The position numbers and the translations under genes are program-made. Below the pieces are notes generated by a model. That model made no database searches, was not told the origin of the DNA, and saw only the letters and a program-made list of their open reading frames with translations. 60,344 nt of DNA from NCBI GenBank assembly GCA_038045945.1, contig JBBSXC010000005.1, forward strand, positions 1 to 60,344, given 5' to 3'. The DNA is from Nanobdellota archaeon. Its GTDB lineage: Archaea > Nanobdellota > Nanobdellia > Pacearchaeales > GW2011-AR1. Shown here piece by piece: positions 7,621-45,500 of this stretch. How positions within the stretch are numbered: the stretch's first letter is position 1; each line of letters opens with the position of its first letter.

Positions 7621-7685
7621 AAAAAAGAACAAAGACTGTTTTTTATAACATAAATACTTATTAATAGAATAAAAGATTTATCAAT

Positions 7686-8150: not shown

Positions 8151-8202
8151 AAACTTTTTCTTTAATCATAATCTTTATTAACTAAAGAATTTTTCTTTAA
8201 TC

Positions 8203-11049: not shown

Positions 11050-11412
11050 TTAAAAATAATAGTTTCTAAGAAAATAATAGCCTAAAACACAACCGAAAAT
11101 GTTAGAGGCCATTTGATCCCATTGTTTCTTTTTACCATCAATCCCGTAACCAGCAATCATTGAGACTATTGGCGCAGCAACATTATTAACACTAGGAATA
11201 TAGTCAATAGTATTGAATACTGCTCCAGCTAGAGCTGTTTGAGTAGCGTGATGAGCAACATGTTCAGCTTGGAGAAGAATTCGGTCAAGCTTAGGATAAT
11301 CTTTAGCTAAACCCTTCCTGAACAGAAATCTATCAGCAATTATGCCAGCGTGTGTAGCAGCACCAAAAGCGCCAATCAAACTAAGATCAATTAGCTTATC
11401 ATCAATATTCAT
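11050..11412 (-). CDS. hypothetical membrane protein
   Basis: 120 aa with hydrophobic helices; its stop abuts the ppsA stop. Confidence 0.6.
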   Translation of the reverse strand: MNIDDKLIDLSLIGAFGAATHAGIIADRFLFRKGLAKDYPKLDRILLQAEHVAHHATQTALAGAVFNTIDYIPSVNNVAAPIVSMIAGYGIDGKKKQWDQMASNIFGCVLGYYFLRNYYF

Positions 11413-11516
11413 TAAGAAAATAATAATTTCCCGTTTATAAATCTTCCTTTTATTTTACTACTAATAAGTTACACTATGAACGAAAGGTTTATATACATGT
11501 TTTGCCTTACCTTTTT

Positions 11517-12110
11517 ATGTCAAAAGCAAAGGTGCAAGAAACTGAAGAACCAGAGCGTACTAACGCCAAGGATCTAAGCAACTATTTAGGAGCTGTTGTA
11601 GCTGGAAGAATATCTTCAGACCCTTCAAGAAGAGGTTACACTATTGAATCTTTGAGAGTAATGTATAATGCTACTTACGGAGACGTCATAAAAAGAATAA
11701 AGGCTGACCCAATAATCGGCGGAGAACTTGAGGCAGCATTAGGAAGAGCAGAAGCAGGACTTGCATCAGGGCACATAACAGACGCTAAAGTATTAGAATC
11801 CATAGGTTTCTATTCAGAATTATTCAAAAAAGCTTACGAAAGCGCAAGAGTTTCAGAATTAATAGAAGCTTTCAGCACTGATGATCTGAAAGAGGACACT
11901 ATAAAAGTTTTATCATTATACCAAGATAAAACAATAAAGGAAATTGAGGATAAAGAACACCAAAAAATCGTTGCTCAAGCTTTCGGAATGCAAACAGAAT
12001 ACAAACAAGAAGAGTTTGCTTTCAAACTTGTTAAAGCTAGCAGAAAAGAAAACGCTGGCAGACTTGAAGATCTAGTTAAAGGTTTAAACCAAGCTAGAGA
12101 AACAGCTTAA
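11517..12110 (+). CDS. hypothetical protein
   Basis: Helical ORF; ATG 11517 sits about 25 nt after a TTTATATA box. Confidence 0.7.
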   Translation: MSKAKVQETEEPERTNAKDLSNYLGAVVAGRISSDPSRRGYTIESLRVMYNATYGDVIKRIKADPIIGGELEAALGRAEAGLASGHITDAKVLESIGFYSELFKKAYESARVSELIEAFSTDDLKEDTIKVLSLYQDKTIKEIEDKEHQKIVAQAFGMQTEYKQEEFAFKLVKASRKENAGRLEDLVKGLNQARETA

Positions 12111-12119
12111 AGAAGTTTT

Positions 12120-13010
12120 TTATTTTTGTTTATCTTCAGTATTATTCTTTTCTATTATTCCTTTTACTAATGCTATCATTACGTCCATGAATTCTTGTGC
12201 TCTTGCTTGCCACTCATCAATTTCTGACCCTTTTATTTCTTTTTGGTGTGCGTGGGCTATGCTTCTGTGAATTTCGTGAAAGTTTTTGAACCATATAGCA
12301 TACTTCATTTTTAGCATTCCCTTATCAACAAATTGTTCCTTAAGCATTATAGGTATTTGTTCAGGCGATGGAGGAACTATTCTAGAGGCCATTAGTGCTG
12401 CTTGTGAAGAATCAACCATACACCAATATATTCCTTCAACAGTGCTTAATTGAGCATTCTTACTTCTGGACAGATGTGCTGGCGCCCTTTCTAAGGCTGT
12501 AAAAACAGCTTCAGGCGTAGACTTAATTTTCCCTTGGTCTAATAAGATTTTTAGAGGGTTGAAGAATCCTCCAAAGTCAAGTATTGCTTCTCCGTAACGA
12601 ATAATGTTTATAACAACAGGGTCTCCTCTCATCATATCATTCCACCAAGTCGTTAATTTAGTAGTATTAACATGCAAATTTTTAGTGTAAGACTTTTCCG
12701 CAACCAAATTTGCTAACTCTTCTCTATACCAGGCTATTAGTTCTTGATCCCAAATAATGCTAGCGTCATCAACAATTATCATTATGTCAACGTCAGAATC
12801 AGAAGTGGAATTATTTTTAACTGAACTGCCAAACAATATTACACTTTTTATTAGTTTACTGAACTTTTTGTAAAGCCTTGTAGAAAAATCTAGTGCTATT
12901 CCCCTCTCATCAGTTATGTTAGATCCTTTGTTAAAACCGTCTTTTGATAATGCTGATTTGTAACTAACTGAGTGATTACTTCTCGACTTGTTTTTTTTCT
13001 TATTCACCAT
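12120..13010 (-). CDS. nucleotidyltransferase with HEPN-like domain (small paralog)
   Basis: LFGSSVK...SDSDVDIMIIVDD and IYWCMVDSSQAALM....PPSP. Confidence 0.82.
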   Translation of the reverse strand: MVNKKKNKSRSNHSVSYKSALSKDGFNKGSNITDERGIALDFSTRLYKKFSKLIKSVILFGSSVKNNSTSDSDVDIMIIVDDASIIWDQELIAWYREELANLVAEKSYTKNLHVNTTKLTTWWNDMMRGDPVVINIIRYGEAILDFGGFFNPLKILLDQGKIKSTPEAVFTALERAPAHLSRSKNAQLSTVEGIYWCMVDSSQAALMASRIVPPSPEQIPIMLKEQFVDKGMLKMKYAIWFKNFHEIHRSIAHAHQKEIKGSEIDEWQARAQEFMDVMIALVKGIIEKNNTEDKQK

Positions 13011-13054
13011 CTTTAATTATTATACTACAATATACATATTAAAAGCTTCTGGTT

Positions 13055-14965
13055 TTAGGCCATTGGTGTGCCGCTAAACCTACTACCCCTTGCTCCGCCC
13101 ATTTGTCCCCCTAGCGAAGTTGGCAGTCCAGTGAACCCTGCGCCAAAACTTTGGAAGTTGTAATCTGGTAAAGTGTCTCCCATCCCAGAATAATAGATGT
13201 TTTGGTTTGCTGCGCCTGCCGCACGATTCCAATTTAACCCTTGAGGAACACCCTCTGTTCCGTTCACGTAGATTGGTGAACCCATTGCTTCCAGAACCAT
13301 TGGTTGAGGCGAGGTTTGCCATTGAGCAACGAAAGCTCCCCCTTCAAAGATTTTTCTTGTTTTACCAAAATCTTTATTAGCTTTATTAAAAGCCTCCAGA
13401 GTTTCTTTTATTTGAATATCTCCCATTCCCGGAACTACGTCATCAGTGCTTCCACCTAAACTATCATTTAGGTGAACATGTTTTACGAATGGTGCTATTG
13501 TTTCTGTTTCTTTCATAATATCTTTTTTTGTGAAACCTTTCTCTACCATTTTTCCAATGTGTACTGTGTCCCATGTTGCACCAATAGTTCTTTCGGCGAT
13601 CTTGGTTGCTTGATCTAAAGACATACCTTCCTTCTCAAAGAGTTTTTGTGCGAATTTCTGCCTACTCATCTCGATTAATTCTTTTAATTCCTTACCAGAA
13701 CTTAATGCCCCACCATAAGGAGGATTCTCAATAGCCATAACTGGCGCTTTACCTGGAAACCTTTTGTACGATTGGAAAGCAACCTCGCTAAAAGTCTCAG
13801 AAGTATTTTTTTTAGCAAACTCCTCTATAGAAACAAATGCTTTAGGACCTTCGATTATATCATTTTCAGTTATGCTGTCCTCTTCTTTATCAAATCTAGG
13901 ATGAAGTGGATTAGTTATTACATGCTCCATACGCTGCATGAGCTTATTTAGAGCACCAGACTCAATGTTTGCTGCGACAAGAGGATGAATTCCCTTTTTT
14001 TGTTCTCCATCACCATCCCCCCTTATTTCTTTGGTCTCTTCTAAGAATTTTTTAGATATATTTCTTAGTTCATCCTGGAGTTTTTGGTTCCCATTAGCCT
14101 TAGCTACTTCTACGGCTTGATGAAAAGTAGAATTTAGACTCTTATGAGCCTCTCTGAAATATTCATTAGCAAGCCTTACTTTATGTATGCCAGCAGCAAC
14201 TCGAGGATCTTTTTGATTAGCAACTAATCCTTCCGAGTCTAAACCAGCGAGGATTAACTGAGCATCTTCAAGAATTTTTTCCCCTTCTGCCTTTCTAAAA
14301 ATTGCTGGTTTAATCTTATTATCCCAATATGTAGAGTTAGTATCTGCTAATTCTTTCTGGATATCATCCTTCTTACCTTTACCGGTCTTTGCGTAGTTAC
14401 TCAAATAATATTTTTCTTCATTCTTTATTGGGGTTAATTGGTTATCTACATAATTATAAACAATTAGTTGTTCAGTTTCCGCACCATCCTTTCCAGGAAC
14501 CATTGAACTTCCAGGAATAACGGCTGATGAGTGGAAAACTATTGGCATATTACCACTAGTATTCAAAGCCTGACCCCTCTCAACAACATACATTAATTCT
14601 CTTTCAACTTGTTTACGATTCTCCTCACTCCAACCACCTTGTTTACTAAAACCACTAGGATCAGTCATGTCATCAAAAGGAGCATGAAGACTAATCTCAG
14701 CCTTATTCAGCTTAGCTAAATTAGCAATCTCTTTCATGTGCCCAGCAGGAATCTGATCAAAAACTTTTTTGTGAACAAGTGATACCTCAATGTTACGAAT
14801 ACCCTGCTTCATTAAGTCGCCAACTTGTTTAAGCTGATTAGCAGTATTAATAGAAGTAGTAGCACCAAGGTTAGCTGCAGGAACCTTGTAACCTTGAAAA
14901 ATAGTGCTATACTCAGACTCTAAAATAGATGGAGTTCCAGGATAAAAATATTCGTAATTTCCCAT
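13055..14965 (-). CDS. xylose-isomerase/AP-endonuclease-2-like TIM-barrel protein with large insertion
   Basis: SLHAP, IVFHSS, AIEN, TWDTVH, HVHLND, VPGMG and IFEG metal-ligand pattern. Confidence 0.75.
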   Translation of the reverse strand: MGNYEYFYPGTPSILESEYSTIFQGYKVPAANLGATTSINTANQLKQVGDLMKQGIRNIEVSLVHKKVFDQIPAGHMKEIANLAKLNKAEISLHAPFDDMTDPSGFSKQGGWSEENRKQVERELMYVVERGQALNTSGNMPIVFHSSAVIPGSSMVPGKDGAETEQLIVYNYVDNQLTPIKNEEKYYLSNYAKTGKGKKDDIQKELADTNSTYWDNKIKPAIFRKAEGEKILEDAQLILAGLDSEGLVANQKDPRVAAGIHKVRLANEYFREAHKSLNSTFHQAVEVAKANGNQKLQDELRNISKKFLEETKEIRGDGDGEQKKGIHPLVAANIESGALNKLMQRMEHVITNPLHPRFDKEEDSITENDIIEGPKAFVSIEEFAKKNTSETFSEVAFQSYKRFPGKAPVMAIENPPYGGALSSGKELKELIEMSRQKFAQKLFEKEGMSLDQATKIAERTIGATWDTVHIGKMVEKGFTKKDIMKETETIAPFVKHVHLNDSLGGSTDDVVPGMGDIQIKETLEAFNKANKDFGKTRKIFEGGAFVAQWQTSPQPMVLEAMGSPIYVNGTEGVPQGLNWNRAAGAANQNIYYSGMGDTLPDYNFQSFGAGFTGLPTSLGGQMGGARGSRFSGTPMA

Positions 14966-33804: not shown

Positions 33805-36591
33805 ATGGTTAAAGGCGGTGCTAAAGAAGTGAATGTAGCTTGGAGAGCATTCTCGATACTAATAGTCCTAGGAATCCTAGGAGTTGCAATTTTAGGAGGA
33901 AAACCATTACTAACAGCTTTTGTAGTATCAGAGAGCGATTATAACGCACAAATATCAGAATCAGTAACTAACCAAGTACAAGAGGATGGTCAGGCAAGAG
34001 TAATAATAAAACTAAAAGATGAAGACGGATTAAAAGCAGCAGTGCTTGACGACACGACAGACTTATCTAAAAAATTATCAGACACTAATTACATTTCAGA
34101 AGAAAACAAAATAGTCTCAGCAGACATTAACACTGAAGAATTACAATCATTAGAAACAAACCCAGCAGTAAGTGAAGTTACATCAGTAAGAGAATTATCA
34201 TTCTTCTTACAAGACGCTAACAGAATAATAAACTCTACAAACACTTGGACTTACCAAATTAACGGCAGCAACATAACAGGAGCAGGACAAACAATTTGCG
34301 TAATAGACACAGGAATAAACTTCACACATAACGACCTAGCAGGAAAAAACGCATTAGGATCAGCAGCAAACATTGATTGCGTAAACAAAAACTGTGTAGC
34401 AAACGAATCAGTAAGCGATGATCACGGACATGGAACATTCGTTGCTGGAATAGCAGTAGCAAATGGAAACATTAAAGGAGTAGCACCAGAAGCAAAAGCT
34501 ATCGGAGTAAAAGTACTAAACTCACAAGGAGCAGGATACGAAGACGACTTAAAGAAGGGAATGGAGTGGTGCATAACTAACGCAGCAACTTATAACATAA
34601 CAACAATAAGCTTAAGTTTAGGAACAAGCACATTATACACTAGTTCATGCGATAATGTAGACGATGACTTAAACATAACAGCAACAGTAAACAGTGCAGT
34701 AAGCGCAGGCATTGGAGTAATAGCAGCAACAGGAAACCAAGGAAGTGTGAGCGGAATAGCTTCCCCTGCATGCATAAGCAATGCAGTAGCAGTTGGAGCA
34801 GTTGACAAAAGCGATAACCCAGTATTTAACAGAAACGCAATCACAGACCTATTAGCACCAGGATCAAACATTAACTCAACAACAATAACTGGAAGTTACA
34901 CGACACTTTCAGGAACAAGCATGTCAACACCACAAGTTTCAGGAGCATTCGCACTACTAAGACAATTCTACAATTTACAAAACGGCACTAACCCAAGCGT
35001 AAGCTTAATAGAAAACGCACTTAAGAATAACGGAAAAATAATTAATGATACATCATCAGGCAACATCTTAAGAAGAATTGACGTTTACGCAAGTATAATG
35101 GCATTATCAGGAAACATAAGCCAACAAAACACAACAAACAGTACAAACACTACTAATCAAACTCAAAATAACCAAACATTTTACATAACAACAACTCTTC
35201 AATCACCAGCAGAAGGATACTACATTAAGAATCAAGCAACAAACCAAGTATTTTCATGCACAGCGTCAACAAACCAAAGCAATGCTAACTTAACAACAAC
35301 AAGCCTAATATTGTGGAATTCAACAGGAAGCCAAACTTACAGAGAGACATACACATACAACATAACAAACAATACTAATAATGCAAGCATAAACTACACT
35401 TACAACATATCATCATTAATATCAGGAACTTACTACTGGAATTGTTACACCACGGACGACAGCAACAATACGGGCATGGCACAGAGCAATAAAACAATAA
35501 TAAAAGACTTAAACGCACCACAATTAGTATTACTAGGACCAGCAGATCAGGCAAATAACCAAACATCTAACACAATAAAGTTCACATTTAACGTTACTGA
35601 TAATTACGAAATAATGACTTGTAACCTAACAAAAGACGGAACAGTAGTCCAAACAAAAGCAAACGTTAGTTCAAGCACAGCATTCTTTTACCAATCAATT
35701 TATACAGGACAATACTTATGGAATATTAATTGCACCGATAACTCAGGAAACACTAACGCGTCCGAAACAAGAACATTATTAGTTAATTTTGGAACAGCAC
35801 CAACAAACACAAGCAATACTAGCAGTGGAGGATCGTCTTCTGGATCCGGGGGAAGTGGAGGATCATCAAGTAGCAGTTCCGATAGTGGTGAAAGCGTAGA
35901 AAAAAAGCCGCAAATATATTCTATATCAAGCGCTGATGCTTACTCAGGAAAAAACTATAAGTTAGTATCTCAAGACCAAATAAAATTCAAAATATTTAAG
36001 GAAGGAGTAGAAAAAGAAAATACTCTAATAGTTGAAGCTTTAGGACAACAAACAGCAAGACTTTTATTCTTAGAAAAGAAGATTAGACAAACAATGATAC
36101 TAGGAGAAGAAAAATCATTCTCAGTAGAACACACAGACAAAACTGACGTAACAATAAAGGTTAACGGAATAACAGCAGGAGTGTTAGACTTAACAATAAA
36201 GTCACTCGTAGCTCCACCAACGCCAGCAGCAACACCAACAAACAACACGGCTACAACAAACCAGAACAATCCAACAACAACAGGAAACGTAGTTAAGGAT
36301 CAAGAAACACAAAGAAATAGCACAATGACAGCATGGATAAGCGGATTCGTTGTCGGAATAAGAGAAAATTCAAATTACGCAATAGCAATAGGAATAATTA
36401 TAGGAGTACTAGTAATATATTACGTTGTTAGCAGATTCATAAAAAGAAAGAAAGACAAAACAGGAAATAAAGACGTAACAAAACAAAAAAACGAAAAGTC
36501 AAAAAAAGATAGTAACAAAAAAGACAAATCAGAACTAATTAAGAAAGAAGAATTAGACAAAGTACTTGATGAAATGGAAGAAAAAGAATAA
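33805..36591 (+). CDS. membrane-anchored S8 (subtilisin-like) serine protease
   Basis: Signal/TM segment, prodomain, triad VIDTG / HGHGT / GTSMS, Asn/Thr-rich Ig-like region and C-terminal TM. Confidence 0.92.
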   Translation: MVKGGAKEVNVAWRAFSILIVLGILGVAILGGKPLLTAFVVSESDYNAQISESVTNQVQEDGQARVIIKLKDEDGLKAAVLDDTTDLSKKLSDTNYISEENKIVSADINTEELQSLETNPAVSEVTSVRELSFFLQDANRIINSTNTWTYQINGSNITGAGQTICVIDTGINFTHNDLAGKNALGSAANIDCVNKNCVANESVSDDHGHGTFVAGIAVANGNIKGVAPEAKAIGVKVLNSQGAGYEDDLKKGMEWCITNAATYNITTISLSLGTSTLYTSSCDNVDDDLNITATVNSAVSAGIGVIAATGNQGSVSGIASPACISNAVAVGAVDKSDNPVFNRNAITDLLAPGSNINSTTITGSYTTLSGTSMSTPQVSGAFALLRQFYNLQNGTNPSVSLIENALKNNGKIINDTSSGNILRRIDVYASIMALSGNISQQNTTNSTNTTNQTQNNQTFYITTTLQSPAEGYYIKNQATNQVFSCTASTNQSNANLTTTSLILWNSTGSQTYRETYTYNITNNTNNASINYTYNISSLISGTYYWNCYTTDDSNNTGMAQSNKTIIKDLNAPQLVLLGPADQANNQTSNTIKFTFNVTDNYEIMTCNLTKDGTVVQTKANVSSSTAFFYQSIYTGQYLWNINCTDNSGNTNASETRTLLVNFGTAPTNTSNTSSGGSSSGSGGSGGSSSSSSDSGESVEKKPQIYSISSADAYSGKNYKLVSQDQIKFKIFKEGVEKENTLIVEALGQQTARLLFLEKKIRQTMILGEEKSFSVEHTDKTDVTIKVNGITAGVLDLTIKSLVAPPTPAATPTNNTATTNQNNPTTTGNVVKDQETQRNSTMTAWISGFVVGIRENSNYAIAIGIIIGVLVIYYVVSRFIKRKKDKTGNKDVTKQKNEKSKKDSNKKDKSELIKKEELDKVLDEMEEKE

Positions 36592-36626: not shown

Positions 36627-36908
36627 ATGCAAAAAAGACTCAGACCAACACTTAGAGAAAAGAAAAGATACTTATTAATAAAAGCTAATAAAGAACAAAC
36701 AGAAAAAGCAATTCTAGAATTCATAGGCATTTTAGGTTACGCTAAGGCAGGAATAAAGTTTGTTAAGGACGAAAAGACCCCAGTAGAACACTCAATACTA
36801 GCAATTAACAGAGAAAAACTTAATGAAGTTAGAGCAAGCTTAATGTTCAAAGAAATAACAATAAAAAAAGTTAGCGGAACAATAAAAGGATTATTAGGGA
36901 AAAAATAG
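36627..36908 (+). CDS. rnp2: RNase P protein Pop5/Rpp14
   Basis: LRPTLREKKRY, G.LGYAKAG and VSGTIKGL. Confidence 0.88.
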   Translation: MQKRLRPTLREKKRYLLIKANKEQTEKAILEFIGILGYAKAGIKFVKDEKTPVEHSILAINREKLNEVRASLMFKEITIKKVSGTIKGLLGKK

Positions 36909-36912
36909 TTTT

Positions 36913-38064
36913 TTAGAAAGGAATATCATCAAAACTAACCTCTTCATCTCGCTCACCAGAAGCCCTACGTTGATTATCAAGACTGCCCCTAGCTTTATTT
37001 CCTTTATTTGTAACGACGCCACGATTACCCCTATCACAAGTAATGCTTTGATCATTACCAGACTCAGAAGTATTTTTAGAACCAGAGGAACTTTCTTCTG
37101 TCTTTCTAGAATGCCAAGAATAATAAGAGTAAGATAAAACATCAATAATCCCCCCTTCAACCCCATCTTCTGAAGCAATAGAGGCTAAATCTTCATTAAG
37201 ATAATAAGTTTCGGCTTCTCCAGCATCAGCAAATCTTGGACCTCCATAATAATCACCATCATCAAAACCTTCGTTTTCTAAATCATCTAAATGATCACTC
37301 GAGTCAAAGTATTCATAAGCTTCCTGATTAGCCTTATCTCTTTCACGATAACTTCCAGCAACAATAGAGTTTTCATCATTAACTTTGTCAAAACCATTAT
37401 CATAATCAGCACGATCATAATTTTCCTTAGTTTCAACAGCACTAACATCATCAAAGTCTGGAGCAAGATCTTTCAGGTCAGGACGCCAATAAAGAGCAAA
37501 GCGAGTAAGGTGATCAAGAAGATCAGCAGGCCTCTCCCCCACAGGAGGACTAGGATAATTGCTAACTGCGACCTCATCACTAGAAGAAGTATGATAAGTT
37601 GATGAACGAGCCCGAGGAGGGGGAGATCTAGAACCAACAGATAAACCACCAGCGTTAGATGAAATACCCTCGCCAGGAGCAAGAACGGGATTAGCAGGAA
37701 GAACTTTAACAACGGGCTTAGTATAATAAAGCTCAGGATGGGTAAAAAAAGGAATTTTCAAACCATTTTCACGAACCAAATCTTCCAAAGTTACATGCCT
37801 CCTAGCTATCTCAGTAATATGAGCCACAAAACTTTGATCCGCAGGACCAAGATTAGTAGTAGCAGGATCCCTACTAAAAACTTGGGGACTGGAAACAGCC
37901 AATTCCATTAAGGCACCGTAAACCTCTCTAGAGTCTCTAGTTTTAAAATTACCAGTTTTACCACCAAGAATAGGGTAAGAAACTAAGTAACCCGTATTAG
38001 CGCCGTGAATAATTGTAACAGGAGAATCATATAAACTTCTCACCGACTTTTTATCATCATCCAT
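36913..38064 (-). CDS. hypothetical acidic protein ending in SSB-like FDDIPF
   Basis: 383 aa with an acidic, low-complexity C-terminal half ending ...DEEVSFDDIPF*. Confidence 0.75.
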   Translation of the reverse strand: MDDDKKSVRSLYDSPVTIIHGANTGYLVSYPILGGKTGNFKTRDSREVYGALMELAVSSPQVFSRDPATTNLGPADQSFVAHITEIARRHVTLEDLVRENGLKIPFFTHPELYYTKPVVKVLPANPVLAPGEGISSNAGGLSVGSRSPPPRARSSTYHTSSSDEVAVSNYPSPPVGERPADLLDHLTRFALYWRPDLKDLAPDFDDVSAVETKENYDRADYDNGFDKVNDENSIVAGSYRERDKANQEAYEYFDSSDHLDDLENEGFDDGDYYGGPRFADAGEAETYYLNEDLASIASEDGVEGGIIDVLSYSYYSWHSRKTEESSSGSKNTSESGNDQSITCDRGNRGVVTNKGNKARGSLDNQRRASGERDEEVSFDDIPF

Positions 38065-38184
38065 GAGTAATATTAACCATTAAGGATTTTAAGCATTATT
38101 GTAATTAAAAAACAATAATAAAAGATTATTTTTCCACAAACCTTCAAGAATAATAATTCTTAAGGTCTTGAGGCTTATATGGAA

Positions 38185-38193
38185 CAAAAAACC
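38185..38193 (+). repeat. left 9-bp target-site duplication CAAAAAACC
   Basis: An identical 9-mer lies at 43968-43976; each copy directly abuts a TIR. Confidence 0.93.
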
Positions 38194-38210
38194 GGCTTTG
38201 TGTAAGAAGT
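38194..38210 (+). repeat. left terminal inverted repeat GGCTTTGTGTAAGAAGT
   Basis: Exact reverse complement of 43951-43967. Confidence 0.95.
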
Positions 38211-38242
38211 CCTTGTAATTGATTACTTTTTACACAGAAAAA

Positions 38243-38383
38243 TTAGTTTGGTATCATGTCTATTTCAAAGACGTTTTTCTTAATATCTACTGTGAATACC
38301 ATTTTAGGCATTTTATCTCCGAACTCTTTATGCGTCTCTTCTAAAAAATACTTTATGTCTTGTTGCACTTCTTTTAGTTCCAC
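38243..38383 (-). CDS. small hypothetical protein (46 aa, GTG start), transposon cargo
   Basis: MELKEVQQDIKYFLEETHKEFGDKMPKMVFTVDIKKNVFEIDMIPN, with TTTAAATA about 25 nt upstream; below the ORF-track cutoff. Confidence 0.5.
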   Translation of the reverse strand: MELKEVQQDIKYFLEETHKEFGDKMPKMVFTVDIKKNVFEIDMIPN

Positions 38384-38414
38384 AAGAATGTTAATGATAA
38401 GCTTTTATTTAAAC

Positions 38415-38699
38415 TTAAGCTTTTGGATGGCCACTCCTTAGCGGGATTTTTACTAATTCCTTCTTATTAGGTAATTTTAAGCATTCGTGGCAGAAAGTAA
38501 CTAATTCTTCTTCTACAAATTCTTGTTCTATATCAAATCCTTCTTCCCTACGAATTATTTTTCCACAAACATTACATATTAAGTCTTCAAACCAAGAATA
38601 GTATTTGTAATATCCTTTTTCTTTATTGTAAGCTTTCTCTAAATCTTCTTTAGTTGGGTAGCTAACATCTTCATTAGTTTCTTCTATATCTTTATCCAT
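38415..38699 (-). CDS. small zinc-finger protein, transposon cargo
   Basis: CNVC...CHEC. Confidence 0.7.
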   Translation of the reverse strand: MDKDIEETNEDVSYPTKEDLEKAYNKEKGYYKYYSWFEDLICNVCGKIIRREEGFDIEQEFVEEELVTFCHECLKLPNKKELVKIPLRSGHPKA

Positions 38700-38702
38700 T
38701 TT

Positions 38703-39020
38703 TTATGAGATTATAGACACCACTAAAGCCACAATAGATATTACAACTGCAACAACCGCCCAGATAAGGGTTAAGTCCTTTCTTCTTTCATCCTCTAATG
38801 TTCTAAGATATGTCATCCCTTTAGTAGTTAACAAATAATGTGCAGGTTGGCTAAATGTTACATAACCATGTGATTGCAATGTTGTAAACATAGCATCAGA
38901 CATTTTCTTCATAAACTTCTCCTTTTTAGTTTTATCAGACAAAGTGTCCATAATTTCAAGTGATTCATGACTAGCAAAGTACCTTAAAGCGTCATAAAAA
39001 GCTTTGTCAATTTTGTTCAT
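38703..39020 (-). CDS. winged-helix-like protein with C-terminal TM helix, transposon cargo
   Basis: L..HGYV.....Y.LT.KG pattern and a hydrophobic C-terminus. Confidence 0.65.
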   Translation of the reverse strand: MNKIDKAFYDALRYFASHESLEIMDTLSDKTKKEKFMKKMSDAMFTTLQSHGYVTFSQPAHYLLTTKGMTYLRTLEDERRKDLTLIWAVVAVVISIVALVVSIIS

Positions 39021-39478
39021 TTTTTAGCGTTTCCTTCTTCGTCAAATTCCATTTCTCCTTTCTTCTTGGTTAGTTCTTCTGGTATTCTGTATTCAACCCA
39101 TCTAACACGACCTTTCTCTATGGTTTCTTTCAGATTCTTTTCGTGAGCGTTTAGTTTTGATTTTCCTGATTTTATCTCTACAAATACTACTTCATCTATT
39201 TTCTTTTCATCCATGCCCTTGAAAACAATAAAATCAATAGGTTTACCAATAAAACGACACTCCGTTGGTAAATAATCAAAATCTGGCAAGTAAGGAGCTA
39301 ATTGTTCCGAGAATTGTCCACCTAATACTGCTCTAGACTTCATGATAGCATCTTTTCTATGGTCTGGCAAAGCTTCTTCCCATTCCTTATGCTTCCTGTA
39401 AGCCCCTATCTTCTGACCAATAAAGAAAGCTACAACCAAACCAATCAGTATAATTACAAGTGTTAATGCGTCTATCAT
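39017..39478 (-). CDS. membrane-anchored Holliday-junction-resolvase-like PD-(D/E)xK nuclease (Endonuc_Holl-like)
   Basis: N-terminal TM, SRAVLGGQFSEQLAPY and FIGKPIDFIVF...FVEIKSG. Confidence 0.85.
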   Translation of the reverse strand: MIDALTLVIILIGLVVAFFIGQKIGAYRKHKEWEEALPDHRKDAIMKSRAVLGGQFSEQLAPYLPDFDYLPTECRFIGKPIDFIVFKGMDEKKIDEVVFVEIKSGKSKLNAHEKNLKETIEKGRVRWVEYRIPEELTKKKGEMEFDEEGNAKK

Positions 39479-39479
39479 T

Positions 39480-41864
39480 TTAAAAGGTGCTTTTGATAAA
39501 ATTTAGACTCTTTTCAAAGGGCTCTTTTATTTCTTCAATTGTAGGAAGCTTCATCTGCGTTATGTTAGGTATTTCAAGTTTTAGTAGTCTTTTCTTTGTA
39601 ACCCATCTACCATAAGAGAAACGCCAATTATGAATGTTTATTTGTGAAGCGTAATAAAGGAGCTGTCTTAAACTCATATCTTTATTTGGGATTAATACTA
39701 AAACTGCTCCGTGACTTCTGGCTACGAAAGGCATTATTTGAACACTTGCTAAACCGAAAGATGACAAAGTTATACAGGGTTTTCTATAAATTAACTCTTC
39801 TTCATCTTCATCAATATACATTTCTACTCCATTGTTCGTTGTTGTACTGGTAATAAAGGGCATTTCCCCGTTACCGTAGTCTTCAATATTTTTTGACTTA
39901 GCATTTTCAATTGTGAATAAGTCTGATAATTGCTCATTACTCTTTATAGCACAATCAGTATCAAGATTTATAGAAGCTCCTTTGAAGAAAGGATTATTTA
40001 TTAGATGATTTACTAAGTTTAGGTGAGTGTGTCGCATTTGTTGAATAATTTCTTTGTTATTGTGTTTATCCTCTTTAAGGTAGTATTCGGGAGCACACTC
40101 CAAGTCTTTGTCTTCTTCATTGTACAGTATAGGTTCTATAGAATAGAGTTTAGGAACATTTTTTTGCTGTGTTATACTCCCATTGAGAAAATCTTTAACT
40201 AAAGACTTAATTGTTTCAATGTTACCATTTGACTTCTTTCTCATTACTCCTTTCTTCTTGATATAACCGTCTTCTAACCTTCCCCAAAAGACATCTTTCT
40301 TAAAATTATGCGGAACACCCTTTTGGATTATCACAGCCGAAGTAACAACACCTACAGGATAAAATAAATCTTCTGGAAGTTTTATTACAGCTTTTAGTGT
40401 ATTGTGCTTTAACATTTCTTTTCGCCATTCTCTTACCTTCATTCCTTTAAACATTATTGGGCTTGGAATAATAACAAATAGTAATCCACCGTCTTCCATT
40501 TGTGATAATCCGTAATCTACAAACTTGTATTCTTTTTCCTCTCCCTTCTTTAGGGCAAACGGCGGATTCATCAGAACCTTTGTTATAACTGGGTTCTTGT
40601 TTTCAGTCCCCTCTCTTTTAGCTTCCTTTCCAGTTTCAAATGAATCTTTAGTAATCTTGTTAATATTTTTTTGGAAACAGTTACCACTCATCATATTGTT
40701 TCTACCATCTCCCCTAAAAATCATATTAACCAGAGCTAGAGCAACAACCTCATCGTCTTGTTCTATCCCGAATAGGTTATAATTCTTGAATTTGTCTATT
40801 TGTTTAGCATTTGAATTTTTCTTAATATAATCAAAGGCAGAAACTAAAAATCCCCCTGTTCCACAAGCAGGGTCTAGGATATAGTCGCTATTCTTAACAT
40901 CTAAAACTTCTACTCCAAACTTTGTTATGTGTCTTGGTGTTAAGACTATGCCAATTTCCTTAGCACCATTTCCATACTTCAAAAACTTTTCATAGAACTT
41001 ACCCAGAATATCATTTCCAGAAGCCATGGCGTTCTTAATATCTAAAGTTTGTAATTCTTTTAATGTGTCTATTACGGCTTTGCGATATTTTATGTGATTT
41101 TCTGGTATCGGCGGAACTTCAAGTTTGATATAGTCATAAAATCCTTCTTTTTTTACTTCTCTTAGTTTCTTTTTAATCAGAGTATTAACATTTTCTACTA
41201 AAGTTGTTGTGTCTTTTTCTCTTAAGTCTATTTCAGAATCAATGGAAAGAGATAATACTAATCCTGCTAAAAATCTTGCTCTTTTATTTTTATTTACTCC
41301 AGCATTATGTAATATCTCGTTTATATTCTCGGCAGAACCCAGATATTTTTCTTCTGGAAAATCTGGAAACTCTTGCCAGTTTGGGGTTTTATTACTTAAA
41401 AGATAGTTAGCTTGTTCTTTAGATAAGAGTGTATCTTTAGGTTTTCCGTTAAACAAAATCTTCTCCCATTTTCCCTTATGTAAGTATTCATTTACTATAG
41501 TATAACCATCTGTATCATTACCTGCAATTCCAGAAGCGATAATACACTTAAGATTAGAATTATCATTAATCCGCCTGGCATAATAATTTTTTGCCTCTTC
41601 TAATGCTCTGTCAATTTCTTTCTTTTCCCTTTTGCTCTCTATTACCCAAACTTCTATTTCATTTAATTTTATTACAGCTTCGGGTCTTTTCGTTCCAAAC
41701 GCTTTCTTAATATCATCATTAGCTAAGCACTCATTTTGCTTGTAGACTTCTCCTTCTGGAACTCTTGCAGGATTTTTAACAATCCACCCTAACTTTTCTA
41801 ATTCTTCTTTAATGTAAGAATAAGCATCCACTTCACTATTAGTAGGATTATTTGAGTGAGCCAT
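39480..41864 (-). CDS. single-chain Type IIG-like restriction-modification enzyme (nuclease + m6A MTase + TRD)
   Basis: RPE...VIESK nuclease-like motif, LTPRHI, LDPACGTGGFL, NPPF and a C-terminal HsdS-like TRD (PFITSTTTNNGV, FSYGR). An alternative start exists at 41957. Confidence 0.85.
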   Translation of the reverse strand: MAHSNNPTNSEVDAYSYIKEELEKLGWIVKNPARVPEGEVYKQNECLANDDIKKAFGTKRPEAVIKLNEIEVWVIESKREKKEIDRALEEAKNYYARRINDNSNLKCIIASGIAGNDTDGYTIVNEYLHKGKWEKILFNGKPKDTLLSKEQANYLLSNKTPNWQEFPDFPEEKYLGSAENINEILHNAGVNKNKRARFLAGLVLSLSIDSEIDLREKDTTTLVENVNTLIKKKLREVKKEGFYDYIKLEVPPIPENHIKYRKAVIDTLKELQTLDIKNAMASGNDILGKFYEKFLKYGNGAKEIGIVLTPRHITKFGVEVLDVKNSDYILDPACGTGGFLVSAFDYIKKNSNAKQIDKFKNYNLFGIEQDDEVVALALVNMIFRGDGRNNMMSGNCFQKNINKITKDSFETGKEAKREGTENKNPVITKVLMNPPFALKKGEEKEYKFVDYGLSQMEDGGLLFVIIPSPIMFKGMKVREWRKEMLKHNTLKAVIKLPEDLFYPVGVVTSAVIIQKGVPHNFKKDVFWGRLEDGYIKKKGVMRKKSNGNIETIKSLVKDFLNGSITQQKNVPKLYSIEPILYNEEDKDLECAPEYYLKEDKHNNKEIIQQMRHTHLNLVNHLINNPFFKGASINLDTDCAIKSNEQLSDLFTIENAKSKNIEDYGNGEMPFITSTTTNNGVEMYIDEDEEELIYRKPCITLSSFGLASVQIMPFVARSHGAVLVLIPNKDMSLRQLLYYASQINIHNWRFSYGRWVTKKRLLKLEIPNITQMKLPTIEEIKEPFEKSLNFIKSTF

Positions 41865-41953
41865 CTTTATATTTATACCATTAAGCCTATTTAAATAGTT
41901 TTTCTTTTCTCTTATCTCGGTTTTACTTAAATCTTTATTGATAATAGAATCTT

Positions 41954-43174
41954 TCATCCTTTTTCCTCCAATACAAATTCTCCTTTTATCCCTAGTTCGC
42001 TTATTTCTTGTATTACGCAAACTATGTTATGACAAATAAATTTTAGTAATAGTTCGTTAGTTTGTGCTTCTTTCGTTTTGCTTCTAAGACCGTCTCTGAA
42101 CTTTGTTTTAATCATGTGAAAAACTGTTTCTACATTACTTCTTTTGTGGTAGTGTTCTAAGAACTCTTCTTGTTTGTAGATGAAATAGTGGTACATTCTT
42201 TTCCAAATGTCTGAGCCTCTTGCTTTTGCTATTGCGTTTCTTTTGAAAGGAATGTAGGGGACAGCTCCCACATCTTCTATGGTTTGTAAGTTCTTACGAG
42301 AACTATAAGCACGGTCTCCACTAACCTCGCCCACCTTAAATGTTTTAGCTGTCTCCTCAACAAGGTGAGGCAGTGAAGGACTATCATTCGTGTTACCATC
42401 AGTAATTTCAACACTTGTAACAATGTTGGTTTTAACACCTGTCATGATGTGAGCTTTAATCCAAGTTTGATACTTAATCTCCTTACCATGCTTGTAACTA
42501 AAGTATCTAGCAAAACGTGAAGTGGAAAAGCCCGAGCTGTCCACAGCAAAGCTACTTTCAACTTCTTTCAAGGGACTAGAACTCATTCTAATTAAAGATT
42601 GAAGAATATCAGTTATCTCTGGTTTCTGCATGAAGTGACCAATAGAAGCATAGCAAGGAACAGAATCAATTAATCTCATTTCCTTAGCAATCTTTAAGTC
42701 AGACATGAAACGCCTTAATGAGAATCCACTGTACACCTTTAATGCTGAAGCAAATATCATATCCGCAAAGGGAAGTTTAGGCCTTCCGAACTCATACGTT
42801 GGTTGTTCTATGTAGTCGCATAAATCCTTTAGGAGCTTCAAGAAGACAAGTTTTTCGTTAGTTTGAGCATTATCATAAGCTTTCCATTCTTGTGTATAAC
42901 TAACCTTAACGCCCTTAGTTTCCGTGACGTTTCCTCTATCATCAATCTGTTTCTTAATGTAAAACTCAACAGCATAGATGTGCTTACACTTACTCTTTCT
43001 TAATTCACAATCGGCACAGTTACATGATGGCTGGTGTCCATTGTATCTTACTAAGTAAGACTTACTGCTTGTCTCTGAAGGAACTCTCCAACCAAAAGGC
43101 GTCTTGACTATCTTGAAGCGTTTAACGATGTCCTTTCCTCGTTCTTCTCTTGTTGCTAATTTACTTTGTGTCAT
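41954..43174 (-). CDS. DDE transposase (IS5/IS4-like DDE_Tnp_1 fold) with N-terminal SWIM zinc finger
   Basis: CNCADC....KCKH SWIM finger; catalytic AVDSSG, GDRAY and Y..RSNVETVF..K residues intact. Confidence 0.92.
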   Translation of the reverse strand: MTQSKLATREERGKDIVKRFKIVKTPFGWRVPSETSSKSYLVRYNGHQPSCNCADCELRKSKCKHIYAVEFYIKKQIDDRGNVTETKGVKVSYTQEWKAYDNAQTNEKLVFLKLLKDLCDYIEQPTYEFGRPKLPFADMIFASALKVYSGFSLRRFMSDLKIAKEMRLIDSVPCYASIGHFMQKPEITDILQSLIRMSSSPLKEVESSFAVDSSGFSTSRFARYFSYKHGKEIKYQTWIKAHIMTGVKTNIVTSVEITDGNTNDSPSLPHLVEETAKTFKVGEVSGDRAYSSRKNLQTIEDVGAVPYIPFKRNAIAKARGSDIWKRMYHYFIYKQEEFLEHYHKRSNVETVFHMIKTKFRDGLRSKTKEAQTNELLLKFICHNIVCVIQEISELGIKGEFVLEEKG

Positions 43175-43177
43175 TTT

Positions 43178-43250
43178 GTAATAGTAATATAGTAATATGT
43201 ATTACTTTATCTATTTAAATGTTTCTATATGGAAATATTTATATATTACT
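43178..43250. promoter_or_regulatory. divergent promoter region with repeated AGTAATAT boxes (putative RHH operator)
   Basis: AGTAATAT at 43183 and 43191, inverted copies at 43200-43206 and 43243-43250, and TATA-like boxes between them. Confidence 0.6.
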
Positions 43251-43269
43251 TTTCATACCTCTTTTTAAT

Positions 43270-43410
43270 ATGAATGAACAAAAAGAGACTATCAGCCTCA
43301 AAATTGACCCTCAACTGTGGAGAGATGCAAAAAAACATTGCATTGATAAAAAACTAAAATACTCTGACTACGTTGAGAGTCTTATAAAAAAAGATTTGGG
43401 TAAAAAATAA
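43270..43410 (+). CDS. ribbon-helix-helix (CopG/Arc-like) regulator, 46 aa
   Basis: KETISLKIDPQLWRDAKKHC...YSDYVESLIKKDL has a beta-alpha-alpha pattern. Confidence 0.8.
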   Translation: MNEQKETISLKIDPQLWRDAKKHCIDKKLKYSDYVESLIKKDLGKK

Positions 43411-43429
43411 TTTAGGTAGTAGAAAATAT

Positions 43430-43747
43430 ATGTCCAAAGAATCGCTTAATAAACAAATATTTTTTGGGGCTATGGGATTATTCTTTTCCTTTCCTACTGC
43501 AGAAGAAACATTCTTGCAATATATCGCCCCTACTGTCTTAAGAGATTCTACTAACCCCTCAATTCCAATACTCATAGGCTTAATAGGAATTTTAATAGCT
43601 ATATCATCTATTTCTTGGCTTATTATCATAGCTAAGCAAATTAAAAAGATGTGGGGAATACTCACTGATAAACATCTAAGAAACATGGTTTTTGCGTTCT
43701 TTTTAGGAGCAGTAGTCGGAATGGCACTCAAAGTAATAGTCTTTTGA
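43430..43747 (+). CDS. small membrane protein, transposon cargo
   Basis: Two to three hydrophobic helices. Confidence 0.6.
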   Translation: MSKESLNKQIFFGAMGLFFSFPTAEETFLQYIAPTVLRDSTNPSIPILIGLIGILIAISSISWLIIIAKQIKKMWGILTDKHLRNMVFAFFLGAVVGMALKVIVF

Positions 43748-43792
43748 AGATAAAATAATAAGAATATTTAATAATAAGCCTATGTTTAGTTT

Positions 43793-43933
43793 ATGATGAG
43801 TCAGCAATTTAAATGCCCCGAATGCCAGTCTAGCCTATTTCATGTGGATAGTTCAGGTAACGAAGAATACGTTCTAAAGTGTTACAAAACTAAGAATTGT
43901 AAATGGGAAATAAAGGTCAAAAAGTCAAATTGA
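43793..43933 (+). CDS. small zinc-ribbon protein (46 aa), transposon cargo
   Basis: MMSQQFKCPECQSSLFHVDSSGNEEYVLKCYKTKNCKWEIKVKKSN; not in the ORF track. Confidence 0.6.
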   Translation: MMSQQFKCPECQSSLFHVDSSGNEEYVLKCYKTKNCKWEIKVKKSN

Positions 43934-43950
43934 CTTTATACACAAGCTTT

Positions 43951-43967
43951 ACTTCTTACACAAAGCC
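43951..43967 (-). repeat. right terminal inverted repeat
   Basis: ACTTCTTACACAAAGCC is the reverse complement of the left TIR. Confidence 0.95.
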
Positions 43968-43976
43968 CAAAAAACC
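43968..43976 (+). repeat. right 9-bp target-site duplication CAAAAAACC
   Basis: Identical to 38185-38193. Confidence 0.93.
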
Positions 43977-44110
43977 TCAAAGTTTAAATACCCCCAAGAA
44001 AGTATTATAATTAATAAAGAAAATAAGTTAATTTAGGTTTTTAATTTCTTCATAAGGGCCAATTAAAAGGCTAAATTAAAGTAAAAAATTACAGGATAAA
44101 AACAAAAATC

Positions 44111-44833
44111 ATGGAAATGCCAATGGATATGCAAAATCAAGCAATGGGTTATGATAGAGCAGCAACTATGTTCTCACCAGACGGACACTTATTACAAGTA
44201 GAATACGCAGAAAAAACAGTAAGGTGGGGAAGTGCAAGCATAGGAATAGTATGCTCTGACGGAGTAGTAATAGTAGCACACAGAAGAGTAAAAGACCAAT
44301 TGATAAACGAAGAAAGTGCTAACAAAATATACGAAGTTGACAGACATATAATGGGAGCAGCAGCAGGAATATTATCAGACGCTAGAGTACTAATAGAAGA
44401 CGCACAACTAATAGCACAACAAAACAGAGTAACATATGACAGCGACATAAACGTAGAATCAATAATAAAAGATATAGCAAACGCAAAACAAAAATTCACA
44501 CAGTACGGAGGAGTAAGACCATTTGGAGTAGCAGTAATGATAGCAGGAGTATCATCAGGCAAACCACAACTATACCTTTCAGACGTAACAGGAAACTACT
44601 TCTCATACAAAGCAGCAGCAGTAGGACACGACGACGACAAAATAAGAGAAATACTAAGACAAGAATACAAAGAAAATATGAACTTAAGCAGCGGAATAAA
44701 ACTAGCACTAAAAGTATTCAAAAGAGTTCTAGAAAAAGATTATAACATTAACAATTTTGACGTAGGAATAATAAAAACTGACGAAGCAAAAATAAAAAGA
44801 TTAAACACAGAAGAACTAAAAAAACATGAGTAA
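44111..44833 (+). CDS. psmA: proteasome alpha subunit
   Basis: GYDRAATMFSPDGHLLQVEYA and TQYGGVRPFGV. Confidence 0.96.
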   Translation: MEMPMDMQNQAMGYDRAATMFSPDGHLLQVEYAEKTVRWGSASIGIVCSDGVVIVAHRRVKDQLINEESANKIYEVDRHIMGAAAGILSDARVLIEDAQLIAQQNRVTYDSDINVESIIKDIANAKQKFTQYGGVRPFGVAVMIAGVSSGKPQLYLSDVTGNYFSYKAAAVGHDDDKIREILRQEYKENMNLSSGIKLALKVFKRVLEKDYNINNFDVGIIKTDEAKIKRLNTEELKKHE

Positions 44834-45500
44834 CGTAGAAGCAAAAATAAGAATTAATGGAAAAACTTACGGAGTCCTAGTTGATTTCGAAAAAGCAATA
44901 GCAGTAAAAGAAGGAAGAGCAAAATTAGGAGCAGAAGTATTAGCAATGAACGAAGTATTCTCAGATATTAAAAAAGGAATGAGAGCAGGATCTGACGAAG
45001 TTATGAATGCATTCGGAACTAATGACATATTCAAAATAACTGAAAGAGTAATAAAAAACGGAGAATTACAAATACCAGCAGATTACAAAAACAAACAAAG
45101 AGAAGACAAAGTAAAACAAGTAATCGACTTCATAAGTAGAAACGCAGTAGACCCAAAAACAGGCAGACCACACACAATAGAAAGAGTGAAAACAGCGATA
45201 GAACAAGCAGGAGTTAACGTAGATAACAGACCAATAGAAGAACAAATAACACACATCATGGATAAACTAAAAGTCATAATACCACTAAAAATGGAAACAA
45301 AAAAAATAAAAGTAACGATACCAGCGTCGTATAGTGGAAGAGCATACTCAATAGTGAAAGATTTAAAAGAGAAGGAAGAATGGTTAAACAATGGAGACTT
45401 GTTATGTGTAGTAAACGTCCCTGCGGGAATGCAAATGGACTTTTATGATAAACTTAACGGGGCAACACACGGAGCAGCAATAGCTGAAGAAATAAAATAA
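44826..45500 (+). CDS. sdo1: ribosome maturation factor SBDS/Sdo1
   Basis: FSDIKKG.RA, AFGT.D, GELQ, DPKTGRPH and PAGMQ..FYD; usual operon position after psmA. Confidence 0.92.
   Translation: MSNVEAKIRINGKTYGVLVDFEKAIAVKEGRAKLGAEVLAMNEVFSDIKKGMRAGSDEVMNAFGTNDIFKITERVIKNGELQIPADYKNKQREDKVKQVIDFISRNAVDPKTGRPHTIERVKTAIEQAGVNVDNRPIEEQITHIMDKLKVIIPLKMETKKIKVTIPASYSGRAYSIVKDLKEKEEWLNNGDLLCVVNVPAGMQMDFYDKLNGATHGAAIAEEIK

Follow-up and report, generated by a model that had tools for sequence, protein, structure and literature searches.

Boundaries and insertion site of the element

A 60,344-bp stretch of DNA from a Nanobdellota archaeon (Pacearchaeales; contig JBBSXC010000005.1 of assembly GCA_038045945.1; hereinafter the window) contains, between the genes pop5 and psmA, a block of nine open reading frames (ORFs) enclosed by a pair of sharp ends (Table 1). 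These ends are perfect inverted repeats (17/17 complementary) that read GGCTTTGTGTAAGAAGT on the forward strand at the left and its exact reverse complement at the right, and the 9-mer CAAAAAACC abuts both of them on the outer side, its two copies being identical at 9/9 positions. The left junction (38185–38210) reads ...GGAA CAAAAAACC GGCTTTGTGTAAGAAGT CCTTG... and the right junction (43951–43976) reads ...ACTTCTTACACAAAGCC CAAAAAACC TCAAAG.... Because the inverted ends are directly abutted by the CAAAAAACC copies, we delimit the element as positions 38194–43967, i.e., 5,774 bp. A first-pass annotation had described perfect 17-bp terminal inverted repeats each bordered by the same 9-mer and, within them, one intact transposase gene plus eight other ORFs; the junctions bear out the former, and an ORF listing together with a Pfam scan bears out the latter. 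The terminal 17-mer has two exact matches in the window, both at the ends of the element, and a further match with 3 mismatches lies at 44598–44614, with dinucleotide shuffles averaging 0.39 matches at up to 3 mismatches.

Table 1. Features of the element in the window, in order of position, with the evidence for each
Feature	Position	Strand	Evidence or remarks
Left target-site duplication copy, CAAAAAACC	38185..38193	.	identical to 43968-43976
Terminal inverted repeat, end downstream of transposase gene, GGCTTTGTGTAAGAAGT	38194..38210	+	17/17 complementary to 43951-43967
Subterminal end-motif copy, inverted (ACTTTTTACACAG = reverse complement of CTGTGTAAAAAGT)	38225..38237	-	14 nt inside terminus
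46-aa ORF, GTG start	38243..38383	-	open frame; no Pfam/PADLOC match, no homologue in other elements
94-aa ORF, two CxxC pairs, last of co-directional string	38415..38699	-	no family match; unique among elements
105-aa ORF, hydrophobic C-terminus, possible winged helix-turn-helix (wHTH)	38703..39020	-	HTH_45 E 0.058 only
153-aa Holliday-junction-resolvase-like (PD-(D/E)xK fold) endonuclease, N-terminal hydrophobic helix	39017..39478	-	PF10107 Endonuc_Holl E 1.2e-35
825-aa type IIG-like restriction–modification (R-M) enzyme, single chain (predicted)	39480..41957	-	N6_Mtase E 5.9e-39
406-aa transposase, SWIM + IS5-family DDE	41954..43174	-	DDE_Tnp_1 (PF01609) E 2.7e-27
Small ribbon-helix-helix (RHH)-like ORF, divergent from transposase; conserved core ~46 aa from ATG 43270	43219..43410	+	CopG_antitoxin E 0.011
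105-aa hydrophobic (membrane) ORF	43430..43747	+	no family match; unique among elements
46-aa Cys-rich (zinc-ribbon-like) ORF	43793..43933	+	weak zinc-ribbon matches; unique among elements
Subterminal end-motif copy, direct (CTTGTGTATAAAGT on - strand)	43933..43946	-	4 nt inside terminus
Terminal inverted repeat, end upstream of transposase gene	43951..43967	-	complement of 38194-38210
Right target-site duplication copy, CAAAAAACC	43968..43976	.	identical to left copy

In the window, pop5 (36627–36908) is followed by a minus-strand acidic ORF, then by the element, psmA (from 44111) and SBDS. In a genome of the same genus (G001) and two genomes of the same family (G421 and G014), pop5 adjoins psmA and the element is absent, such that the relatives do not carry its genes at this locus. 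The pop5–psmA interval measures 7,202 bp in the window as compared to 831 bp (including a 180-aa acidic ORF), 670 bp and 352 bp in the three genomes, respectively. After subtraction of 5,783 bp (the element plus one duplication), the start of the acidic ORF lies 263 bp from psmA in the window and 286 bp from it in G001, and 79.5% DNA similarity to that genome restarts 20 nt past the right duplication. Together, the perfect ends and the absence from the sister species suggest that the insertion is recent.

The element sits inside the conserved archaeal pop5–psmA–SBDS neighborhood (36627–45500), 134 bp upstream of the psmA start, and its insertion parts psmA from its former upstream sequence. 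The ORF between pop5 and the element (36913–38064, minus strand) codes for a 383-aa acidic low-complexity protein with weak similarity (E 0.006) to the 180-aa acidic protein encoded at the equivalent position in G001; judging from this similarity and shared position, it is probably a fast-evolving resident gene.

The transposase and its relatives

The transposase gene of the element, the only one in the genome with a match to PF01609, codes for a protein that its sequence features assign to the IS5 family. In addition to the PF01609 match, it possesses a D-D-E triad (D212, D287 and E349) and the signature Y342-x2-R-x3-E-x6-K356, the motif Y-x2-R-x3-E-x6-K being a mark of the IS5 family. In an alignment of 35 sequences, D212, D287, E349, R345 and K356 are invariant and Y342 is conserved. 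The best plasmid-borne relatives are IS5-family transposases with 26–28% identity, among them ISRusp1- and ISPko1-type versions. N-terminal to this catalytic region lies a SWIM zinc finger (CxCxnCxH in a β-β-β-α module) with the ligands C51, C53, C56, C63 and H65, of which C63 is invariant in the same alignment and C51, C53 and H65 are found in at least 90% of the sequences. The PF04434 (SWIM) score of 18.6 bits is slightly below the Pfam cut-off of 19.6, and several close homologs bear PF04434 in their precomputed annotation. An AlphaFold model (mean pLDDT 83.8, with block means of 82–90 for residues 23–75) predicts a module of three strands followed by helices at residues 23–75, a disordered linker at 81–92, helices up to residue 202 and an RNase-H-like core. 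The closest folds to this model in the PDB are the ISCth4, P element and Tn5 transposases, and a sequence search of the PDB with the transposase profile returned nothing significant.

Seven of 41 close genomes encode relatives of the transposase, and at E <= 1e-30 such relatives are present in 63 of 401 genomes across the order. The surroundings of the best transposase matches were retrieved in two rounds (4 regions, then 20), and a scan of 27 loci with the end motif yielded a first set of 13 elements with both ends, ranging from 3,241 to 9,041 bp, 12 of which have exact 9-bp duplications, all different. A second finder, independent of the motif, required an exact inverted seed of 8 nt, no more than 3 mismatches over 17 nt and an exact 9-bp outer direct repeat, with the pair spanning the transposase gene, and was applied to 80 loci from contigs of one genome per species. 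It recovered boundaries in 40 of these loci, 9 of which repeat the first set, and all 40 begin with GGCTTTG (in one case AGCTTTG), the exception being an additional outer pair in locus L081. A looser version with a 7-nt seed added 2 of 22 further loci and 5 of 11 loci on viral contigs, and one more (L143) came from the motif listing. In total, we count 51 distinct insertion sites of elements with GGCTTTG-type ends and exact 9-bp duplications, measuring 2,326–11,371 bp. Hence, copies with other cargo and other duplications, which the first-pass annotation had suggested searching for, do exist, and none of the 51 delimited relatives is a transposase-only copy bounded right around its transposase gene, all being 2.3–11.4 kb in size.

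The ends of these elements share an asymmetric architecture. On the side upstream of the transposase gene, a direct copy of the motif (CTTGTGTATAAAGT in the window) lies 4–5 nt inward of the terminal 17-mer, and the opposite end has an inverted copy ~13–14 nt inside (ACTTTTTACACAG in the window), a layout that recurs in most relatives. The motif has a variable core (GTGTAA, GTTAAA, GCACGA, etc.) that differs between elements and agrees among the four sites within each; such co-variation is as would be expected of cognate binding sites. In a few elements the transposase gene is flipped relative to the asymmetry of the ends, and the cargo occurs on either side of the transposase gene among the relatives. 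The flanks of the duplications at 34 archaeal sites show a T at positions −4 to −2 in 27, 24 and 21 of 34 cases and an A at bases 3 to 5 past the duplication in 21, 23 and 21 of 34, i.e., a symmetric A/T-tract bias that amounts to a loose target preference.

The family is not specific to DPANN archaea and spans both archaea and bacteria. Going by record titles, the close relatives (61–73% identity) come from Pacearchaeota, Woesearchaeota and Nanoarchaeota metagenome-assembled genomes (MAGs), and the more distant archaeal ones from Aenigmatarchaeota, Micrarchaeota, Methanosarcinales and Thermoplasmata. The bacterial relatives are found in Acidobacteriota, Eremiobacterota, Trueperaceae, Chloroflexota and Hyphomicrobium isolates. 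In a quick version of a transposase tree, the monophyly of the group that we labeled "DPANN_nano" is partly circular, since the group was defined in part by high identity and low GC content; it also includes contigs titled Fusobacteriaceae, Methanosarcinales and Thermococci.

Plain insertion sequences (ISs) were sought among relatives that match the transposase from about residue 90, and the finder was empty in the short (~4-kb) loci. A link between the SWIM domain and the presence of cargo was considered and could not be established, as at least three of these relatives, L143 (5,911 bp, duplication ACGTCAACA), L147 and L059, likewise have their ends kilobases away from the transposase gene. 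One distant relative (L008, 32% identity) resembles a plain 1,240-bp IS, the right flank of which runs off the contig.

Certain loci show further configurations. Eleven IMG/VR contigs (L156–L166) encode transposase relatives, and five of these have delimited elements of 3.7–4.3 kb with 9-bp duplications; the transposons may ride on viruses or proviruses, or else the IMG/VR contigs may be misclassified. At L081 (2538–15068), a 7,388-bp IS5-like element (7419–14806) is nested in a 12,531-bp element that has other ends (GGTTCTGTCGCA..., IS6-like in appearance) and is flanked by an exact 9-bp duplication of its own. This outer element contains an 820-aa type IIG-like methyltransferase ORF and a gene for a 430-aa transposase, in which a SWIM-like CxC...CxH motif is joined by a zinc ribbon, and would be a second family of SWIM-transposase elements bearing R-M cargo. 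At L009 (3885–3950), a stretch of ~66 bp from GGCTTTGAAATT to TTAACAAAGCC abuts the duplication of a 9,041-bp element and may be an ends-only remnant or a derivative resembling a miniature inverted-repeat transposable element.

Cargo of the window element and its relatives

Five genes on the minus strand of the window element (those for the transposase, the type IIG-like R-M enzyme and the Hjc-like nuclease, plus two small ORFs) run in the same direction and are tightly packed. The stop codon of the transposase gene overlaps the ATG of the R-M gene (ATGA; GGATGAAAG), the nuclease gene begins 1 nt past the methyltransferase stop, the start of the 105-aa ORF at 38703 to 39020 overlaps the stop of the gene upstream by 4 nt, and the 94-aa ORF follows after a 3-nt gap. 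On the other side, three small genes run divergent from the transposase.

Sequence comparisons predict that the 825-aa protein is a single-chain type IIG-like R-M enzyme with a putative nuclease part. Its best PADLOC model is REase_MTase_IIG (E 8.6e-43), and it possesses a γ-class N6-adenine methyltransferase domain with the motif NPPF, the sequence relatives of which in the PDB are type I M subunits. Residues 677–823 match single target recognition domains (TRDs) of the separate S subunits encoded by L043 and L051 (E 5e-8 and 2e-6, respectively). A candidate nuclease motif, R-P-E...V-I-E-S-K, lies at about residues 93–108, is kept in 5 of 6 homologs and overlaps a weak HSDR_N match (E 0.07). 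The model match, the γ-class core and the one HsdS-like TRD are shared with the type IIG/IIB (BcgI-like) enzymes. BcgI-type systems have an A+B architecture, which the relatives in L009, L043 and L051, with their separate S gene, resemble. The enzyme is the only match to PF02384 in the genome, and PF01555, PF00145 and PF02086 have no matches there; accordingly, the only DNA methyltransferase detected in the genome by these four Pfam families lies within the element.

Across the family, cargo is variable. The 97 ORFs of the first 13 elements fall into 71 clusters, with only the transposase common to all 13. Pfam scans covered ORFs of at least ~140 aa in these first elements and of at least 100 aa in those labeled A3 and A4, and revealed a DNA methyltransferase in 10 of 13 scanned elements, that of the window included. 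N6_Mtase domains occur together with Endonuc_Holl in the window element, with DUF2779, Methylase_S and DUF3644 in L009, and with PDDEXK_1 and Methylase_S in L043, and the N6_Mtase/Eco57I type accompanies PDDEXK_3 in L044 and PDDEXK_1 in L045. Others carry a C5 DNA_methylase (L010), a GmrSD_N-HNH protein and an EcoRI_methylase (L012), GmrSD_N and a D12 methyltransferase (L042), or an 890-aa HSDR_N_2-Eco57I-TaqI_C enzyme (L052). L051 combines Methylase_S and PDDEXK_5 with homologs of the N6-type methyltransferase and Endonuc_Holl, recognized by clustering with the window proteins; the Endonuc_Holl homolog there adjoins the M and S genes. L040 encodes AEP-TOTE, NurA and a HerA-like ATPase, and L046 and L048 have nothing recognizable. 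A C5 methyltransferase was assigned to L058 through blastp clustering.

Another 18 archaeal elements contributed 70 cargo ORFs of at least 100 aa, in which the methyltransferase domains were N6_Mtase (11), N6_N4_Mtase (3), DNA_methylase (1) and MT-A70 (1), and those of nucleases and related proteins were PDDEXK_1 (5), HSDR_N_2 (4), ResIII (3) and RestrictionMunI (1). By phmmer, 14 of these 18 elements contain a methyltransferase homolog, with 2 more recognized by motif IV only. Thus, the cargo of the archaeal elements, as read from domain matches, appears to be mostly R-M or defense genes. The cargo of 11 bacterial elements differs: 2 of its 33 ORFs are methyltransferase-Mrr fusions, and the others include SDH-type proteases, a deaminase, P63C and helix-turn-helix proteins. 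We also observed a 9,593-bp element (L093:9677–19269) with eight same-strand ORFs of ~300–370 aa and no recognizable methyltransferase, i.e., with cargo of another kind.

Given that methyltransferases are by far the commonest cargo and that in 6 elements the transposase stop overlaps the methyltransferase start (ATGA), the methyltransferase and nuclease genes might instead be part of the transposition machinery, for instance if methylation of the ends were to time transposition, a role that Dam methylation plays in some bacterial ISs. However, the methyltransferases belong to unrelated classes (γ N6, C5, D12, EcoRI-type, N4/N6 and MT-A70), there is none in L040, L046, L048, L093 and L154, and most bacterial relatives do without one. 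Moreover, the cargo of L130 and L132, two mobile copies that are identical, is of other kinds. We therefore regard such a role in transposition as highly improbable and favor the view that these genes are passengers.

Those same two copies are also informative on mobility. They are 3,040 bp long, 100% identical, lie on one Trueperaceae contig and have different duplications; their identity at two sites indicates that such units move whole. In addition, L098 and L115, from different genomes and different sites, are 89% identical over ~80% of their length, whereas most other pairs of elements have in common only the third taken up by the transposase. The mobility of whole units also bears on whether the repeats in the window have anything to do with the mobility of the block, as they could have arisen by chance, or from the ends of a small IS and a solo end, with the block being a genomic island that came by another route. 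Nothing beyond the single copy in the genome speaks for that scenario, to which we give next to no credence: the genome has a single transposase gene and lacks a second IS copy, the duplication encloses the whole block, the same ends and 9-bp duplication surround variable cargo at 51 sites in relatives, and identical whole units at two sites in one genome contradict it. The first-pass claim that the element moves defense genes as one unit accordingly holds for whole-unit mobility, as observed in the relatives, while its defense part stays a prediction.

Turning to the smaller ORFs of the window element, homologs of the RHH-like one are present in 13 of 52 elements and the others are unique to the window element. 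The cargo labels of the first-pass annotation fared unevenly: Pfam supports the methyltransferase part of the R-M enzyme and the PD-(D/E)xK nuclease, but the wHTH, RHH, Zn-finger and membrane labels are weak, relying on Pfam matches with E 0.01–0.06 or on visible Cys pairs and hydrophobic runs. Apart from the R-M enzyme, the window has 7 cargo ORFs, of which 6 had no PADLOC match and the seventh, the 46-aa Cys-rich ORF, had a weak one (PDC-S64, E 5.6e-4). A scan of promoters and terminators with a sigma-70 model, which is inapplicable to archaea, did not rise above shuffles. Outside the element, just upstream of pop5, a 928-aa ORF (33805–36591, plus strand) with Asn/Thr-rich repeats and a C-terminal membrane anchor looks, from a by-eye reading of its translation, like a secreted subtilisin-like (S8) protease.

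Affinities, mobility and significance

Among known elements, the closest likeness is to the IS903 group of the IS5 family, as the first-pass annotation had noted. The ends of this group begin with GGC, its transposase measures ~307 aa and its target preference is palindromic, a feature comparable to the symmetric A/T-tract bias around the duplications of the window family. The termini of the window element begin with GGCTTTGT, as do those of a bacterial IS903-type element, an ISRusp1 copy (ends GGCTTTGTTGCGCAAAGG) that is 1,051 bp long with ends GGCTTTGTTG..., and the two further share an IS5-family DDE transposase and the 9-bp duplication, 9/9 in the window and exact at the 51 sites of its relatives. 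In contrast to the group members of ~1.05 kb with a single ORF, the window element has 5,774 bp, nine ORFs and a 406-aa transposase, with ~95 aa accounted for by the extra N-terminal SWIM zinc finger of its family, and each end in the family has a second, subterminal site. The IS5/IS903 entries in Table 2 of PMC3281130 are 1,050–1,054 bp in size, with a direct repeat of 9 and one ORF.

By the definition of ISfinder and of reviews (PMC9330008), a transporter IS (tIS) has passenger genes within the IS ends. The window element corresponds to this in possessing one IS-type transposase, passengers, one pair of ends and one duplication. It is unlike a composite transposon with its two flanking IS copies, as the genome has a single transposase gene and a single pair of these ends. 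Thus, we consider it very probable that the window element is a tIS, or unit transposon, of the IS5 family with IS903-like ends. Whereas the tIS examples of the IS1202 family, as presented in PMC10132070, carry a single extra ORF, the cargo of the window family comprises 1–10 kb, is variable and is present in every delimited member. The Tn7-like transposons, which Benler et al. 2021 (PMC8649781) portray as carriers of defense systems, likewise constitute a family with variable cargo rich in defense genes. However, they are bacterial and employ the multi-protein TnsABC(D/E) apparatus with site-specific targeting, whereas the window family, found also in DPANN and other archaea, relies on a single IS5-type DDE transposase and shows a target preference that is symmetric and loose. 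What sets the family apart from the described elements is the SWIM-fused transposase, the doubled end sites, the cargo in every delimited member and the spread across both domains, with R-M-rich cargo in DPANN. The suggestion that the family is undescribed stands in that no account of it, or of any IS5/IS903-type tIS family with a SWIM transposase, was found in the literature, a search not extending to ISfinder or TnCentral.

Several observations weigh against reading the window element as a mobile, IS5-type transposon with an R-M enzyme on board. No second insertion was found, and no other copy of the 17-mer with up to 2 mismatches exists in the whole genome (847 kb in 7 contigs, 93% complete). 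Contigs of 4 sequencing runs span both junctions with even depth, supporting the assembly, and contain no joint, empty-site or excised form, though these runs represent one study with two samples, are possibly the source data of this assembly and were viewed as contigs, which mask rare variants; an exact 30-nt pattern from the left flank had 0 matches in metagenome contigs. The empty site rests on synteny and spacing and not on a base-for-base comparison, because the sister genome is only ~70–80% identical there. Among the relatives, boundaries were not found in 40 of the 80 genome loci, many of which are cut by contig ends, and one element with both ends (L051:6986–15340, 8,355 bp) has no duplication (3/9 bases match), which recombination between two copies or an adjacent deletion may explain. 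As to the proteins, the best NCBIfam model of the transposase, transpos_IS5_2, scores 135.8 bits and so falls slightly below its cut-off of 140 (the next, IS1182, scores 62.7 bits, and the relative L058 reaches 143.3 bits on the IS5_2 model). The nuclease part of the R-M enzyme is represented by the motif, the weak Pfam match and the PADLOC family name, and its structure model, built from a 6-sequence alignment, is poor (mean pLDDT 52.5). Finally, all the data derive from MAGs.

The single copy, the even depth and the lack of empty-site or joint forms in those contigs would equally fit a fossil that was once mobile and is now fixed or domesticated, being kept for its R-M system with an inactive transposase, as would a GC content (0.31–0.37) similar to that of the flanks and the fact that the best non-self transposase match is only 74% identical. 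Yet the ends (17/17) and the duplication (9/9) are perfect, the 406-aa ORF is open with its catalytic and zinc-binding residues all intact, and the element is absent from the genome of the same genus; hence, we judge this explanation unlikely, albeit clearly less so than those discussed above.

Under the preferred reading of the element as a mobile transporter IS, we propose the following mechanism. The single SWIM-DDE transposase would bind two sites per end, i.e., the terminal 17-mer and its subterminal copy, synapse the ends and then cut at the GG termini. The whole 5.8-kb unit would insert via a 9-bp staggered cut of the target, leaving the CAAAAAACC duplication between the acidic-protein gene and psmA. 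The R-M enzyme, probably co-translated with the transposase by virtue of the ATGA overlap, would methylate the host DNA and cut unmodified incoming DNA, thereby protecting the host, and may also stabilize the element through post-segregational killing.

More tentatively, we speculate that the family might be a cross-domain SWIM-DDE lineage that always carries cargo, perhaps with no bare IS, and that it could serve as a principal vehicle by which R-M and other defense genes pass between the tiny genomes of the Pace-, Woese- and Nanoarchaeota. The translational coupling of transposase and methyltransferase might make the R-M addiction module and the transposon mutually stabilizing, and the SWIM domain and doubled sites might enable the synapsis of distant ends. 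Of 8,000 candidates scored in a protein search, 6,712 transposase clusters reached E <= 1e-20, all of them named just "transposase", suggesting that IS5-type transposons with cargo constitute a family that has been overlooked. Being compact and made up of one protein, a transposase that moves 2–11 kb is of possible interest as a tool, and the sharp ends and duplications make the cargo a clean catalog for new searches for defense genes.

DPANN archaea have very small genomes. According to a recent survey (PMC12988326), R-M and CRISPR systems are under-represented in them. The only DNA methyltransferase detected in this genome by the four Pfam families being in a transposon, taken together with sister elements that carry different R-M or defense sets, points to a simple, single-enzyme vehicle for the exchange of defenses in these organisms.

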